Positions 4,976-9,332 of a stretch of DNA of 32,000 nucleotides are shown piece after piece. The position numbers and the translations under genes are program-made. Position 1 is the first letter of the stretch. Every line of letters begins with the position of its first letter. Source of the DNA: Nonlabens ponticola (lineage in GTDB: Bacteria > Bacteroidota > Bacteroidia > Flavobacteriales > Flavobacteriaceae). The DNA is taken from the NCBI RefSeq assembly GCF_003966335.1, contig NZ_CP034549.1, positions 810,001-842,000 of the forward strand. Direction: 5' to 3'. The notes below the pieces were generated by a model. It was not told the DNA's origin and ran no database searches. It saw only the letters and a program-made list of their open reading frames with translations.

Positions 4976-5092
4976 CCATCTCAATTGATTTGAATTCCTA
5001 ATCACAAGCATATCGCAAAGCCTATCACCAACAATAGTAAAAGCACCTTATTAGGAACTAGGAGCATACCGCGACTGCTGGTTCAGCAAGCC

Positions 5093-6379
5093 TTGCCGGC
5101 ATCCATAGGTATTCTTGTGATGTCGCTCAATATACTGGTGGATACCATATTTGTTGGTAATTGGATAGGCTCTATTGCTATTGCGGCTATAAACGTGGTA
5201 TTGCCTATTTCGTTTTTTATTGCTGCCTTAGGTATGGCCATAGGTATCGGTGGTGCTAGTATCATCTCTAGAGCGTTAGGCGCTAACGATACCGCTCGAG
5301 CTAAAAGAACCTTTGGAAACCAAATAAGTCTCACCTTAATCATCACTGTGCTGTGTGTAATCGTGGGTCTTACTTTTTTGCAGGATCTTGTTCCGCTTTT
5401 TGGTGGTAAAGGCGCGATCTATGAGCCAGCATCAATTTATTACCGTATAGTTTTATATGGTGCTCCCATACTAGCGCTATGTATGATGGGAAACAACGTC
5501 ATACGAGCAGAAGGCGCGCCTAAACACGCCATGATCGCCATGCTTATTCCTAGTATAGGTAATTTGTTGCTTGATTATATCCTGATCAATCAATTAGAAA
5601 TGGGAATGACTGGTGCCGCGTGGGCAACCACAGCCAGCTATTGCTGTTGTTTTCTATATATCGCATGGTTTTTTCTATCAGGTCGCAGTGAGCTGATGCC
5701 ATCCATCAGGCAGTTACTACCTGACTGGAACATTCTCAAGGAAATGGGTGGTTTGGGATTTGTCACTTTGGGTAGACAGGCTACAACAAGTGTGCTCTAT
5801 TTGATTCTCAATAATATCTTGCTGGATCTAGGTGGTGAGGATAGCGTATCCGTTTTTGGTATCATAGGTCGCATGATGATGTTTGCCTTGTTCCCAGTTC
5901 TAGGCGTCACGCAAGGATTTTTACCTATTGCTGGTTACAATTATGGATCAGGACAGCATGATCGCGTGCGCGAGGTAATCTACACATCCATCAAGTATGC
6001 TTGCGGTCTAGGCGTGTTGATTTTGGTAGGCTTGTTAGCTTTTAGCCGTAATATCGCAGCGATTTTTACTGATAATACAGCGGTAGTTGATCAGGCGACG
6101 GCAGCGCTCAACATAGTATTTCTAGCGGTGCCCATTATCGCTGTGCAACTTATAGGTGCGGCTTATTATCAAGCCATAGGCAAGGCCTTACCAGCGTTGA
6201 TTCTCACCATCCTGCGCACAGGTATTATCTTGATACCACTATTATTAATCTTGAGCCAATTATATGGAGAGACAGGTGTGTGGATTAGTTTTCCTATAGC
6301 AGATTTCTTGAGTACGTTAATTACCGGGTACTTTTTATATCGTGCATTAAACCGTTTGAAAGATCCAGTAGTCTCATAA
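5093..6379 (+). CDS. MATE family efflux transporter (5' end uncertain)
   Basis: 12-TM-type hydrophobic ORF with a MATE-like N-terminal block (PASIGILVMSLNILVDTIFVG). The annotated start is TTG 5093. The same frame stays open upstream to the TGA stop at 4991-4993 and encodes MATE-like residues (STLLGTRSIPRLLVQQAL) without any ATG/GTG/TTG. Confidence 0.8.
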   Translation: MPASIGILVMSLNILVDTIFVGNWIGSIAIAAINVVLPISFFIAALGMAIGIGGASIISRALGANDTARAKRTFGNQISLTLIITVLCVIVGLTFLQDLVPLFGGKGAIYEPASIYYRIVLYGAPILALCMMGNNVIRAEGAPKHAMIAMLIPSIGNLLLDYILINQLEMGMTGAAWATTASYCCCFLYIAWFFLSGRSELMPSIRQLLPDWNILKEMGGLGFVTLGRQATTSVLYLILNNILLDLGGEDSVSVFGIIGRMMMFALFPVLGVTQGFLPIAGYNYGSGQHDRVREVIYTSIKYACGLGVLILVGLLAFSRNIAAIFTDNTAVVDQATAALNIVFLAVPIIAVQLIGAAYYQAIGKALPALILTILRTGIILIPLLLILSQLYGETGVWISFPIADFLSTLITGYFLYRALNRLKDPVVS

Positions 6380-6405
6380 TTTGTTAACACGTTTGATGGT
6401 ATTAC

Positions 6406-6419
6406 GCTTTCGCGAAAGC
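6406..6419. repeat. GCTTTCGCGAAAGC palindrome copy 2 (intergenic, 3' of MATE gene)
   Basis: Exact 14-mer with the left extension TTAC, 26 nt after the MATE stop. Confidence 0.95.
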
Positions 6420-6460
6420 AAAATCACCACCACCATCCAACCATAATAAGAAGCCCATCG

Positions 6461-6468
6461 TATATTTG
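6461..6468 (+). promoter_or_regulatory. candidate -7 promoter box (TAnnTTTG) for the thioesterase/paralog-1 unit
   Basis: TATATTTG lies 12 nt upstream of ATG 6481, implying a very short leader. Confidence 0.35.
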
Positions 6469-6480
6469 AGAGTATAAGAT

Positions 6481-6978
6481 ATGTATTACAAACAATTTGA
6501 TGTAAGATGGAGTGATCTGGATGCCAACAGGCATATGGCAAACAGCGCCTACCAGAATTTCATGAGTCACACAAGAATGGCTTACTTGATTGATAATGGA
6601 TTTGGTCAACGTGAGATGCAACAGTATCAAACTGGACCGGTAATCTTCAATGAAAACGTTTATTACTTCAAAGAGATACATCAAGGAAAGCCTATAACGG
6701 TAACTTGTGAATTAACAGGGCTAAGTGATGATGGTTCCCTCTTTAGTTTCAAGCATAATTTTTATGATCACCGCGGCGAGAATCTCGCTCGTGGTATCAT
6801 GACTGGTGCATGGATGAATCTTGTAGAACGTAAGATCATGGCGTTACATCCAGATTTAAAGAAGAAGATTAACGATATGGTAAGGTCACAGGATTTTACC
6901 GAACTAAGTTTTAAGGCCACGAGATCACACGGTCAAAAACCGGTTGCCGTAAATATGGATAATTTGATTACCCGATGA
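6481..6978 (+). CDS. acyl-CoA thioesterase (4HBT/YbgC-like hotdog fold)
   Basis: 165-aa ORF. The N-terminal VRWSDLDANRHMANSAYQNFMSHTRMAYL matches the hotdog thioesterase signature (Asp/His-containing DxDxxxHxxN block). Its stop overlaps the next start (ATGA at 6975-6978). Confidence 0.75.
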   Translation: MYYKQFDVRWSDLDANRHMANSAYQNFMSHTRMAYLIDNGFGQREMQQYQTGPVIFNENVYYFKEIHQGKPITVTCELTGLSDDGSLFSFKHNFYDHRGENLARGIMTGAWMNLVERKIMALHPDLKKKINDMVRSQDFTELSFKATRSHGQKPVAVNMDNLITR

Positions 6979-7424
6979 TCAGCGTTTCAGAAAGTGTTTT
7001 TAAAGACGATATCCTAGAGGTGCTAACCTTTCCATTTGGTAAATTTTACCTATTTAGAAACTTCATAGTTTCAGAAGTTAATGAGGACGTCGTTTTTAGC
7101 AGTAAGCAAGCACAGCTGGTATTAGATGCTTCTTTAGAATTTTATGAAAAGTTGGGTGATCTGAGCAAGAAGGTGTACATAGCTAATAGGATAAATGCTT
7201 ATTCTGTAAAGCCATTGGGCTGGCTTAAATTTACTTTTTTGACTGAAAGGCTATACGGCTATGCCGTGGTGACAAATACTTCAGGCGGTTTTACAAACGC
7301 AATTCTAGAATCAACCTTTGTGCCTGTAGAATTTAAATCTTTTACTGAGTTGGTAGACGCTATTCAATGGGTGGCGATAGTAAACGAAGCGGGTAAATTT
7401 ATCAATAATGACACAAATAATTAA
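6975..7424 (+). CDS. uncharacterised protein, paralog 1 of 3 (inferred STAS/SpoIIAA-like fold)
   Basis: 149-aa ORF. It shares with the next two ORFs the blocks GxFYhF..hVSEh.E.V, YIxNR...YS..P..W, GhAxV, NAhLE..FVP..FK and DAh.W. Confidence 0.7.
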   Translation: MISVSESVFKDDILEVLTFPFGKFYLFRNFIVSEVNEDVVFSSKQAQLVLDASLEFYEKLGDLSKKVYIANRINAYSVKPLGWLKFTFLTERLYGYAVVTNTSGGFTNAILESTFVPVEFKSFTELVDAIQWVAIVNEAGKFINNDTNN

Positions 7425-7435
7425 CATATGTTAAT

Positions 7436-7443
7436 TATATTTG
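7436..7443 (+). promoter_or_regulatory. candidate -7 promoter box (TAnnTTTG) for paralog 2
   Basis: TATATTTG lies 23 nt upstream of ATG 7467 and is directly preceded by the 14-bp palindrome TTAACATATGTTAA (7421-7434). Confidence 0.35.
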
Positions 7444-7466
7444 CCACTTGAAAAAGTGAGCAACCC

Positions 7467-7901
7467 ATGATAGTACCATCCATTAAGGATTCCATTTATT
7501 ATGAAAACGTGATTCGAGAAATTACACTTGAGTGTGGTGATTTTTATTTTTTTGAATCGCATCTAGTGTCTGAAATTCATGAAGGCGTGCTCTTTGGTGG
7601 TGAAGAGGCACTCGATATTTTCAGTGAAGCGATAAGCTTTTACAACGGCACTGATCGTCCCAAACATTTTGTTTATATATCAAATCGTGTAAACGATTAC
7701 TCTCTCAGGCCCGTTGATTGGTTACAATTCAAATTCATGAATCGATTCATGAAGGGATTTGCTACTGTCGATAACCGTCCACGAGCTGCACAAAATGCCA
7801 TGCTGCTGGAAAAATTCGTTCCCAGTAAGTTTAAGTTATTTGCAAATATGTCTGATGCTATGATATGGGCCATTGATATTTATAAATCCTATCATGATTG
7901 A
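7467..7901 (+). CDS. uncharacterised protein, paralog 2 of 3 (inferred STAS/SpoIIAA-like fold)
   Basis: 144-aa ORF, collinear with paralogs 1 and 3 (GDFYFFESHLVSEIHEGV, VYISNRVNDYSLRPVDWL, NAMLLEKFVPSKFKLF, DAMIWA). It has its own TAnnTTTG box upstream. Confidence 0.7.
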   Translation: MIVPSIKDSIYYENVIREITLECGDFYFFESHLVSEIHEGVLFGGEEALDIFSEAISFYNGTDRPKHFVYISNRVNDYSLRPVDWLQFKFMNRFMKGFATVDNRPRAAQNAMLLEKFVPSKFKLFANMSDAMIWAIDIYKSYHD

Positions 7902-7983
7902 TAACAGAATAATTTCTTTTCTAAAAAGTTAAATACTAGCTAATCTATATAGACGTTTGTAAATTCAACTCCTGATCAACCCT

Positions 7984-8418
7984 ATGATTTCTATTCTAGA
8001 TACGCCCTATAAGTCTTTAATCTTGCACACTATATACCTACCCATCGGTAAGCTCTATTTATTAAAAGATTGCGTTGTCTCAGAGCTCTATTTTGAAGTC
8101 ATCGGTACAGCGCAGCACGCCAGCGAGGCATTACAGTTATGTCTTGATTATTATGGCACTTATGATGTGATCAAGAAACGCATCTGGATTGCAAACCGCA
8201 CTCAAAAGTATTCTATACAGCCAGTAGCATGGATACGCCTCAAGAAAGAAGCTACACAGTATTTAAAGGGTTATTGTGTCGTTGATACCACTAAATACGG
8301 TATCATGAATGCGATTCTAGAGTCAAAATTTGTCCCAATCAATTTCAAGAATGCGACTACCCTAGACGAGGCTATGCAATGGACGCAGGAAATAATGAGT
8401 GATCAGGAAAGCGCCTAA
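7984..8418 (+). CDS. uncharacterised protein, paralog 3 of 3 (inferred STAS/SpoIIAA-like fold)
   Basis: 144-aa ORF. By hand alignment it shares about 52 identical positions over about 135 aligned with paralog 1 (GKLYLLKDCVVSEL, IWIANRTQKYSIQPVAWI, NAILESKFVPINFK, EAMQW). Confidence 0.7.
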   Translation: MISILDTPYKSLILHTIYLPIGKLYLLKDCVVSELYFEVIGTAQHASEALQLCLDYYGTYDVIKKRIWIANRTQKYSIQPVAWIRLKKEATQYLKGYCVVDTTKYGIMNAILESKFVPINFKNATTLDEAMQWTQEIMSDQESA

Positions 8419-9332
8419 TTTATAACTGTTTCCTCTTTTACAGTTCTTTGTGATTTACGACCAGTCAAATAAACTCCTAAAAAGATCATCACGCCTATTC
8501 CAGCCTTAGTCCATGACAATGTATCAGTCCCTAAACCAACAGCAATCAATGCGGCAAGCAACGGCTGCAAGTAAACAAAGACGGCAACCACGCTAGGCTT
8601 CAAGGTTTTTATAGCAATGATGTTGAGCATATATGTACCAAAGGTTGCAAACAACACTACATAAGCAATATTCAATACAATAGTTGTGCTTGCTGTACTC
8701 CACTCAAAGGCGAGTCCTTGCTCTATACCAAACGGCGTAATGAACAACAATCCAAATAGATACAACCACTTCATCAATGTAAATACATCATATTTTGCTG
8801 TGAGTCTTTTGGCCAGCAAAATGTAAAAAGCATAACTCACGCTATTGATAAACACAAGAAAATTTCCTGTCATTGGATCTGCTGCTATTTGATTGGGTGC
8901 ACTTGATAAGATAATGAGTAAGGTGGCTCCGGTAAAACCAAGCATGATACCAGCGATCTTATAGCCGGTGAGTTTCTCCTTGAGAAATACGGCACTTAAT
9001 ACGGCAACAATAATTGGTGTTGTGACCATCAGCACTGATGCGCTGATAGGTGTGGTCAAACTAAGACCCCACATAAATGTGATCATATTAAATCCTACAC
9101 CACAAAACGCAGCAAGAGCAATAAGCGGTAGATCTTTAAGTGGTACTGTTTGTTTCGTTTTCACGAAAAGTGATATCACCCAAAATATTGTACAAGTCCC
9201 TAATACTCGATACCACGTCAAGCCGAACGGACCTATATGATCTGGTGTGACTTCTTTAGCAGCAGAAAAGTTGTATGCATAAAACAATGCCACAAGAGTC
9301 GCGCACATAAGCGCGACCTGTCTCTTAGTCAT
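8415..9332 (-). CDS. DMT superfamily (EamA-like) transporter
   Basis: 305-aa ORF with about 10 hydrophobic helices in two similar halves, typical of EamA/DMT permeases. Its stop codon overlaps the stop of the convergent paralog 3. Confidence 0.8.
   Translation of the reverse strand: MTKRQVALMCATLVALFYAYNFSAAKEVTPDHIGPFGLTWYRVLGTCTIFWVISLFVKTKQTVPLKDLPLIALAAFCGVGFNMITFMWGLSLTTPISASVLMVTTPIIVAVLSAVFLKEKLTGYKIAGIMLGFTGATLLIILSSAPNQIAADPMTGNFLVFINSVSYAFYILLAKRLTAKYDVFTLMKWLYLFGLLFITPFGIEQGLAFEWSTASTTIVLNIAYVVLFATFGTYMLNIIAIKTLKPSVVAVFVYLQPLLAALIAVGLGTDTLSWTKAGIGVMIFLGVYLTGRKSQRTVKEETVIN

Follow-up and report, generated by a model that had tools for sequence, protein, structure and literature searches.

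What are the three small, related genes that lie in tandem behind a thioesterase gene in Nonlabens ponticola, and what might their products do? We examined a 32,000-nucleotide (nt) stretch of DNA from this organism (NZ_CP034549.1, positions 810,001 to 842,000; referred to here as the window, whose own numbering is used below) in which these genes, designated par1, par2, and par3, form an array on a single strand. Structural modeling supports the placement of their products in the STAS/SpoIIAA-like superfamily, close to the uncharacterized family DUF3478. Several roles can be imagined for proteins of this kind; the one that we favor, and to which we give about an even chance, is that they serve as binding modules for a ligand or a protein partner.

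An array of old paralogs

The initial annotation of this stretch had described a thioesterase gene followed by three paralogous open reading frames (ORFs), and the ORF list contains all four on the forward strand (Table 1). The ATGA overlap that it had noted between the thioesterase stop and the par1 start (positions 6975 to 6978) was confirmed, the sequence being cccgATGAtcagc. A count of about 52 identities over about 135 positions for par1 and par3, made by hand, is reproduced closely by BLASTP (52/133 identities, 39%; E, 5e-36), far beyond what chance would give. As had also been claimed, par1 and par2 are less alike (45/131, 34%; E, 3e-32), and par2 and par3 share 42 of 135 residues (31%; E, 4e-25). 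The sequence blocks said to be common to all three copies reappear in a three-way alignment, except that par2 reads NAMLLEKF against NAILESxF; it therefore has Leu at the most conserved position of the family (Glu112), with its own Glu shifted by one residue.

No DNA-level repeat is left between the three copies, from which we conclude that the duplication is old. The proposal that these are diverged, old paralogs and not the outcome of a recent duplication is also borne out by a neighbor-joining tree and by comparison with orthologs across the Nonlabens-like loci described below.

Fold and family assignment

With par1 as the sole query, a word-indexed homolog search returned nothing but par1, and a profile search was needed to find its relatives. 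An exhaustive search of this type, with representative clusters drawn at 50% identity, yielded at least 442 clusters at an E value of ≤1e-3 and 186 at ≤1e-10. The suggestion that the proteins adopt a STAS/SpoIIAA-like fold of the DUF3478 type holds up on three counts: an AlphaFold model, the best structural match to that model, and recurrent weak matches of family members to PF11964 and DUF7793.

The AlphaFold2 model of par1 was built on a 47-sequence family alignment and reached a predicted local distance difference test (pLDDT) score of 86 and a predicted template modeling (pTM) score of 0.81. With strands at residues 22 to 26, 30 to 35, 66 to 71, 93 to 99, and 119 to 123 and helices at 43 to 59, 80 to 84/89 to 92, 103 to 113, and 126 to 146, it contains the SpoIIAA-like/STAS topology (beta1-beta2-alpha1-beta3-alpha2-beta4-alpha3-beta5-alpha4). 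The model adds an N-terminal strand (residues 15 to 19), giving beta-beta-beta-alpha-beta-alpha-beta-alpha-beta-alpha, and the order of elements predicted earlier agrees with it apart from this one strand. When the model was compared with the PDB by Foldseek, the top match was 2q3l_A, a DUF3478 protein of SpoIIAA-like fold (E, 2.8e-3; probability, 1.00; template modeling [TM] scores, 0.48/0.55). Next came SiaC, Geobacillus SpoIIAA (1tid, 1til, and 1th8), and the anti-sigma antagonist 4hyl; the STAS domain of SPDT also was listed.

With regard to sequence profiles, par1 matches PF11964 ("SpoIIAA-like"; DUF3478) with an E value of 0.021 and 16.0 bits, below the gathering threshold of 25 bits. 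In the Pfam scan, par2 and par3 did not match PF11964, no window paralog matched DUF7793 (PF25056), and PF01740 (STAS) had no match to the window proteins at an E value of ≤1. Elsewhere in the family, PF11964 is matched by 10 of the 47 close members and by 19 of 143 representatives at an E value of <0.01 (best E, 1.5e-7), and DUF7793 is matched by 8/47 and 14/143 (best E, 3.3e-8). Precomputed domain assignments place PF11964 on two family members and DUF7793 on four distant ones, and some members are already named "STAS/SEC14 domain-containing protein" or "SpoIIAA-like" (NCBI and UniRef).

Alignment to PF11964 and to 2ook/2q3l falls in the C-terminal F..L..A..W block, in which, among 186 family members, Phe123 is retained in 136, Leu126 in 149, Ala129 in 176, and Trp132 in 155. 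In 2ook/2q3l, Phe114, Ala120, Trp123, and Leu124 make up a beta5/alpha4 cluster by which alpha4 is packed against the sheet (Kumar et al. 2010, PMC2954212). Sequence searches of the PDB yielded only noise with the 47-member profile; a broader profile reached 2ook and 2q3l at E values of only 0.4 to 1.5, and its matches to the designed repeat proteins Ika8 and Ika4 were discarded as repeat artifacts. By its model and its profile matches, we take the family to be distantly related to PF11964 and DUF7793 and to form a branch of the known STAS/SpoIIAA-like superfamily that lies mostly outside any Pfam model.

Distribution, copy number, and neighborhoods

A genome scan seeded with a 14-sequence subset of the alignment confirmed 250 stretches, for which 80 loci were listed. 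All 80 belong to marine Flavobacteriaceae or to unclassified Bacteroidota metagenome-assembled genomes, and each named source is a marine flavobacterium; the genera include Aquimarina, Maribacter, Cellulophaga, Leeuwenhoekiella, Olleya, Dokdonia, Flagellimonas, Croceitalea, Ulvibacter, Gilvibacter, and others. The triple array of the window is not the usual state. Among 88 loci, 63 carry one copy, 18 carry two, 5 carry three, and 2 carry four; most genera are single-copy, and the Nonlabens-like relatives have par1+par3, par1+par2, or the reordered series par1-par3-par2. The neighbor-joining tree, which is without bootstrap values, points to separate expansion events in Aquimarina, Cellulophaga, the Olleya group, Bizionia, and Gilvibacter. 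In addition, two family domains are naturally fused in the metagenomic proteins P0061 (254 amino acids [aa]), P0062 (266 aa), and P0170 (237 aa), which is consistent with the copies operating as pairs.

No neighbor is universal, and the largest neighbor cluster occurs in 16 of about 87 loci. The family gene lies with a small membrane protein gene and a desuccinylase-like gene in Flagellimonas and Croceitalea, with CvpA and alpha-2-macroglobulin in Maribacter and Cellulophaga, and with an OmpA-like protein and FKBP in Leeuwenhoekiella and Ulvibacter. In Olleya, Mesoflavibacter, and Bizionia, it is found between menB-menA and CvfB-DUF2853-menD-menF-4HBT.

The thioesterase and the Nonlabens-like loci

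The upstream gene had been called a hotdog thioesterase, and this identification was upheld: its product matches PF13279 (4HBT_2) above the cutoff (E, 1.6e-16; 61.3 bits versus 25.5; profile positions 1 to 121 of 122). Its closest solved structures are 5byu and Escherichia coli YbaW/FadM (1njk; E, 2e-6). We also considered whether it might be the 1,4-dihydroxy-2-naphthoyl-CoA (DHNA-CoA) thioesterase of menaquinone synthesis and rejected this for want of evidence; it shows no BLASTP similarity to the men-cluster 4HBT protein of the Olleya-type loci, and its sole match to an NCBIfam MenI model has an E value of 0.037.

Synteny with the window was found in Nonlabens agnitus, Nonlabens sp. YIK11, and three metagenomic contigs, the common order being M28 peptidase, ferrochelatase, MatE, thioesterase, array, EamA, and ArsC. 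These five loci (L001, L002, L007, L088, and L090), together with the window, constitute what we call the Nonlabens-like clade, in which the window thioesterase is 75 to 79% identical to its same-position orthologs. The array had been singled out as an accessory-looking module, and the comparison with relatives agrees, in that the array varies and the genes around it are of the housekeeping kind. Three old paralog lineages can be traced in the clade, differently lost or reordered among genomes and with the par1 type always directly behind the thioesterase: L001, L002, and L007 have par1+par3, L088 has par1+par2, L090 has par1-par3-par2, and the window has par1-par2-par3. Orthologs of par1 are copy 1 of L001 and copy 1 of L002 (53 to 54% identity); those of par2 are P0015 in L088 (51%) and copy 3 of L090 (49%); and those of par3 are the second copies of L007 (58%), L001 (53%), L002 (52%), and L090 (50%).

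All six loci keep the order thioesterase-par1 type, and in five of them the two genes are -4 to +17 nt apart. The ATGA overlap itself (-4 nt) is confined to the window and L007, and three other loci have gaps of 14 to 17 nt in its place. The gene linkage to the thioesterase, from which a functional link had been suggested, is maintained within the clade and does not extend beyond it, the window-type thioesterase being absent from the approximately 80 listed loci of other genera.

Several further observations concern these loci. The par1-type copy of L090 (approximately positions 5461 to 5915) apparently has, as read by eye, a 1-nt insertion in a T run; in the +1 frame, the sequence GNFLSTKGYNSV would read as the family motif FYLLKDIIVS, and the copy is a pseudogene or else reflects an assembly error in the homopolymer. 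A dienelactone hydrolase gene lies between the ferrochelatase and MatE genes in four loci (L001, 2620 to 3366; L002, 3154 to 3969; L090, 2635 to 3369; L088, 606 to 1352) and is absent from the window (4976 to 5092) and from L007. Downstream of ArsC, the content varies, with DinB_2 in the window and L002 and Band_7 in L001. Finally, homology of the window MatE ORF (5093 to 6379) to the N terminus of its orthologs (IAKPITNNSKSTLLGT...) runs about 36 codons further upstream (4985 to 5092), a segment that contains no canonical start, the first ATG, GTG, or TTG being at 5093; the gene may have an unusual start codon, or its start may have been lost.

Function of the paralogs

Our best explanation, which as a whole we consider about evenly balanced between right and wrong, is that the three ORFs are real, functional, and as yet uncharacterized STAS-like genes for small cytoplasmic proteins, found so far in marine Flavobacteriaceae only, whose products act as ligand- or partner-binding modules. 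By analogy with the dimeric 2ook and 2q3l, they would be soluble homo- or heterodimeric proteins of the DUF3478 type, and the beta3-alpha2 loop (N-R-x-N-x-Y-S-x-x-P-x-x-W) together with a mobile alpha2/alpha3 region would receive a small ligand, possibly a hydrophobic or acyl-derived one, or a protein partner. par1 would probably be cotranscribed with the thioesterase gene, and par2 would be expressed from a palindrome-controlled promoter of its own.

We favor the binding-module explanation because DUF3478 proteins are dimers, because the conserved motif falls in what may be a mobile region, and because tandem arrays (2 to 4 copies) and fusions recur in the family. The DUF3478 dimers have a mobile alpha2/alpha3 region that opens up a hydrophobic cavity, and the authors of that work proposed that the proteins either carry nonpolar ligands or are enzymes activated at an interface (PMC2954212). 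The most conserved motif of the paralog family (residues 68 to 83) coincides with the part of the par1 model that has the lowest confidence (residues 71 to 90; pLDDT, approximately 70), and on the basis of the model this part would be the counterpart of the mobile "switch region" in DUF3478.

A number of points weigh against the binding-module explanation. The TM scores, at about 0.5, are borderline, and no window paralog reaches a Pfam gathering threshold. For DUF3478, the carrier idea was itself only predicted, from crystal structures, and neither that family nor ours has a known ligand, partner, or phenotype. The linkage to the thioesterase, being specific to one clade, may be fortuitous. 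A single-sequence AlphaFold model of the fusion P0061 was too poor (pLDDT, 42; pTM, 0.28) to provide evidence on domain packing or heterodimers. Furthermore, the conserved polar residues Arg72, Glu112, Asn71, Glu34, and Tyr76 would suit the active site of an enzyme equally well.

This last point leads to the strongest of the alternatives, which we nevertheless regard as unlikely: that the paralogs are small enzymes, possibly activated at the membrane interface, with an active site made up of Glu34, Asn71, Arg72, Tyr76, Ser77, and Glu112, and that in Nonlabens they might act on what the thioesterase produces or consumes. Near-invariant polar residues are unusually numerous for a protein of 140 aa; among 186 members, Glu112 is conserved in 182, Arg72 in 179, Tyr76 in 170, Asn71 in 166, and Glu34 in 161. 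The other well-conserved positions are Ala129 (176), Phe115 (169), and Pro80 (164). Interfacially activated enzymes were, as noted, also weighed by the DUF3478 authors, and the first copy is closely linked to a thioesterase gene in six loci. On the other hand, no STAS-fold enzyme is among the structural matches found by Foldseek, par2 of the window lacks Glu at position 112, and Ser77 varies within the family. The neighbors also differ between genera, and there is thus no conserved pathway context.

Next in likelihood, and improbable in our estimation, is that the paralogs are partner-switching regulators that resemble anti-anti-sigma factors, with the loop Ser phosphorylated by a kinase encoded elsewhere and dephosphorylated by a PP2C phosphatase, as in SpoIIAA, RsbV, and SiaC. 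SpoIIAA (1tid_B, 1til_B, and 1th8_B), the antagonist 4hyl, and the phospho-regulated SiaC do appear in the Foldseek list. In addition, Ser77 is located in the loop between beta3 (66 to 71) and alpha2 (80 to 84), three residues ahead of alpha2 in the AlphaFold model, a position topologically comparable to the site of Ser58 in SpoIIAA, where alpha2 begins (PMC2954212). The initial annotation had described this Ser of the Y-S-x-x-P motif as invariant. Its location at the beta3/alpha2 junction is correct, and it is present without exception in the 47 closest members, but family-wide it is found in only 144 of 186; the remaining 42 have Asn (16), Ala (11), Asp (4), or other residues, and the natural fusions read YNVDP, YAVDP, or YTFDP. 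The family also lacks a DSSG-type motif. When its profile was compared by hhalign with a SpoIIAA alignment (for which the Bacillus subtilis SpoIIAA sequence had been checked against 1auz beforehand), the probability was 0.09%, with no relation detected, and Ser77 could not be aligned to Ser58 by sequence.

The genomic context also argues against a phosphorylation switch. As had been reported, the window contains no SpoIIAB-type kinase or PP2C phosphatase; a Pfam scan of 20 flanking ORFs (at least 100 aa; positions 891 to 31485) detected none. Neither the window ORFs scanned nor nine Pfam-annotated related loci yielded a HATPase_c kinase, PP2C phosphatase, or sigma factor, and the ten commonest neighbor clusters of about 87 loci likewise include none; partners could be encoded elsewhere in the genome. 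Moreover, the closest structural relative, DUF3478, mostly has Asp or Glu where the Ser would be, from which its authors deduced a loss of SpoIIAA-like function (PMC2954212). A classical role as phospho-regulated anti-sigma-factor antagonists is unlikely for the paralogs.

A more elaborate, albeit speculative, version of the binding-module explanation, to which we assign a slim chance, is that the family is a Flavobacteriaceae-specific, SEC14/DUF3478-like carrier for an acyl or naphthoquinone-type metabolite of poor solubility, which would pick up what a hotdog thioesterase produces and hand it to a membrane enzyme, with heterodimers of the paralogs differing in ligand specificity. The appeal of this idea is that it would connect the thioesterase unit of Nonlabens, the men-cluster position in Olleya, Mesoflavibacter, and Bizionia, and the ligands proposed by the DUF3478 authors, who independently suggested naphthoquinones and flavins as likely candidates (PMC2954212). 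We can only speculate that an acyl or naphthoquinone-type ligand is compatible with the coupling to a thioesterase in one clade and the men-cluster site in another.

Divergence and selection

Are the paralogs constrained, or are they simply drifting? The ratio of nonsynonymous to synonymous substitution rates (dN/dS) is 0.079 and 0.058 for the two STAS-like copies of N. agnitus versus YIK11 and 0.066 to 0.099 in three Aquimarina pairs, with values of 0.015 to 0.080 for neighboring genes. Ratios of 0.06 to 0.10 in five ortholog pairs therefore indicate purifying selection on the STAS-like genes. At the same time, these genes lie in a trough of sequence identity. Window neighbors are 73 to 93% identical to their orthologs and STAS-like orthologs 45 to 58%; between N. 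agnitus and YIK11, dS is 0.51 and 1.22 for the STAS-like copies versus 0.17 to 0.25 for MatE, thioesterase, EamA, and HemH. In the comparison of L001 (positions 5701 to 6498) with L002, DNA identity is 0.74 to 0.84 exactly across the two STAS-like genes versus 0.93 to 0.99 on both flanks. This pattern suggests deep allelic divergence, allele replacement, or recombination and not relaxed constraint.

The trough, the differential loss and reordering of paralogs in the Nonlabens-like clade, and the independent appearance of arrays of 2 to 4 diverged copies in several genera might all be expected of a fast-turnover conflict cassette, such as one of immunity-like proteins directed against a toxin, but this is the least probable of the readings considered here, given that no toxin, secretion system, mobile element, or defense gene was found in the nine annotated loci or the ten commonest neighbor clusters, that PADLOC returned no match at an E value of ≤0.1 for any of the four proteins and no plasmid homologs of the array were found, that most genomes have a single copy in conserved housekeeping synteny, and that the dN/dS values give no sign of positive selection.

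Putative promoters and operators, and repeats

How might the array be expressed? Two boxes with the sequence TATATTTG match TAnnTTTG, the published -7 promoter consensus of the Bacteroidetes, and are putative promoters on that basis. The first precedes the thioesterase gene, and a TAnnTTTG box is found at a similar site ahead of the thioesterase in L088, L090, and L007. The second (positions 7436 to 7443) is 24 nt upstream of the par2 ATG. Over the window as a whole, the motif is not enriched (32 found and 32 expected). No -7 box was found upstream of par3, scans for sigma-70-type promoters and for terminators gave no more matches than did shuffled sequence, and an Rfam search returned nothing.

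The second box lies inside a 26-nt block of the form AATTAACAT(A/T)TGTTAATTATATTTGC, which is nearly invariant, with diverged flanks, in the window, L090 (6510 to 6535), and L088 (3904 to 3929), and which occurs only upstream of par2-type genes; its palindrome (half-sites TTAACAT and ATGTTAA) also is present in L089 (2 to 15). Based on this conservation, par2 probably has its own operator-controlled promoter, with a dedicated transcription-factor operator that is specific to the par2 lineage. The N terminus annotated for the par2 ortholog P0015 (MLIIFALFL...) reads through the block; the annotated start therefore appears to be too far upstream, and the true start is probably MRLRSVKDS.

A different palindrome, GCTTTCGCGAAAGC, is located in the spacer between the MatE and thioesterase genes, where it may serve as a hairpin or terminator and keep the MatE gene apart from the thioesterase unit. 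The window contains 7 copies (starts at 1540, 6406, 13831, 18016, 20242, 25709, and 30104) versus 0 expected from 100 shuffles; the element includes the most overrepresented 12-mer core of the window and is also found in Dokdonia-like loci (L030, L034, L039, and L079). Three copies lie immediately after stop codons, the spacer copy included. Four are intragenic (in genes for an M28 peptidase, a TonB receptor, a 295-aa ORF, and PGI), and three of these encode AFAKA. The element looks like a repetitive extragenic palindrome, a terminator, or an uptake sequence.

Table 1. Array genes and associated sequence elements, in window coordinates
Feature	Positions	Strand	Basis
Perfect 14-nt palindrome GCTTTCGCGAAAGC, MatE-thioesterase spacer	6406-6419	.	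Same spacer in L001, L002, L007, L088, L090
Putative -7 box TATATTTG, TAnnTTTG match, 13 nt upstream of thioesterase ATG	6461-6468	+	Consensus match
Hotdog acyl-CoA thioesterase, 165 aa, FadM/YbgC-like 4HBT_2 type	6481-6978	+	Pfam PF13279, nearest PDB structures
par1, 149 aa, STAS/SpoIIAA-like (predicted)	6975-7424	+	AlphaFold2 model, Foldseek, subthreshold PF11964
Putative par2 operator/promoter block AATTAACATATGTTAATTATATTTGC, 26 nt, palindrome overlapping -7 box	7419-7444	+	Conservation
Putative operator element AATTAACATATGTTAATT			
par2, 144 aa, oldest and most divergent paralog lineage	7467-7901	+	Three-way alignment, tree
par3, 144 aa	7984-8418	+	ORF list, orthologs
EamA transporter gene, convergent with par3	8415-9332	-	3' end (stop codon) shares 4 nt with par3 stop

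Comparison with known systems

The present findings amount to an incremental, fold-level annotation and not to a new kind of system. Nonetheless, they place a sizeable family (at least 442 clusters), most of which lies outside Pfam, beside DUF3478 and DUF7793. Should a ligand or partner be identified, hundreds of "hypothetical proteins" from ecologically important marine Flavobacteriaceae could be annotated, and some light might be shed on proteins of the DUF3478 type as well. The divergence trough under purifying selection and the putative operator of the par2 lineage offer concrete entry points for experiments.

Among the systems with which the locus can be compared are the hotdog thioesterases of the FadM/YbgC type, with which the upstream gene belongs by its match to PF13279 above the cutoff and to 1njk. 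For the paralogs, SpoIIAA and RsbV (STAS; PF01740) share the overall fold (1tid_B, 1til_B, and 1th8_B; TM scores, 0.40 to 0.54) and, in the close subfamily, the beta3-alpha2 Ser. On the other side, the paralog family shows no profile similarity to them, has no DSSG motif, and does not retain the Ser family-wide, and no SpoIIAB-type kinase, PP2C phosphatase, or sigma factor was found nearby in the window ORFs scanned or the nine annotated loci. SiaC of Pseudomonas aeruginosa (DUF1987), a phospho-regulated activator of the diguanylate cyclase SiaD, is similar in structure (7e6g_C, 6kkp, 6kko, and 6k4f; TM scores, 0.40 to 0.53) and, again like the paralogs, is a STAS-like protein that stands alone, outside a sigma-factor context. 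However, its sequence is only 7 to 11% identical to that of par1. The SiaC gene resides in the siaABCD operon with genes for the kinase SiaB and the PP2C phosphatase SiaA, and partners of the SiaB/SiaA type were not found at the paralog loci examined. DUF7793 (PF25056) is a neighboring family, as judged by its matches to 14 of the 143 representatives; the window proteins do not match it, and it is itself uncharacterized, literature searches for DUF7793 and PF11964 having found nothing.

The closest relative is DUF3478 (PF11964), represented by 2ook and 2q3l of Shewanella (Kumar et al. 2010, PMC2954212). It provides the best structural match and shares with the paralog family the topology and the C-terminal F..L..A..W cluster. 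Both are small, single-domain cytoplasmic proteins in which the alpha2 region is mobile (DUF3478) or of low confidence (the paralog model), neither occurs in a SpoIIAA kinase context, and both have been named "STAS/SEC14 domain-containing protein" at NCBI. The sequence similarity is marginal (16 bits for par1 where 25 are required; 19 of 143 representatives at an E value of <0.01), no reliable alignment to DUF3478 exists over the N-terminal two-thirds, and the DUF3478 "switch" residues His6, Gly7, Tyr34, Trp71, Asp72, and Asp73 have no evident counterparts in the paralogs. The paralog family, for its part, is distinguished from DUF3478 by its N-R-x-N-x-Y-S-x-x-P-x-x-W loop, its S-E motif, Glu112, and the additional N-terminal strand, as well as by its restriction to Flavobacteriaceae and its propensity to form tandem arrays.

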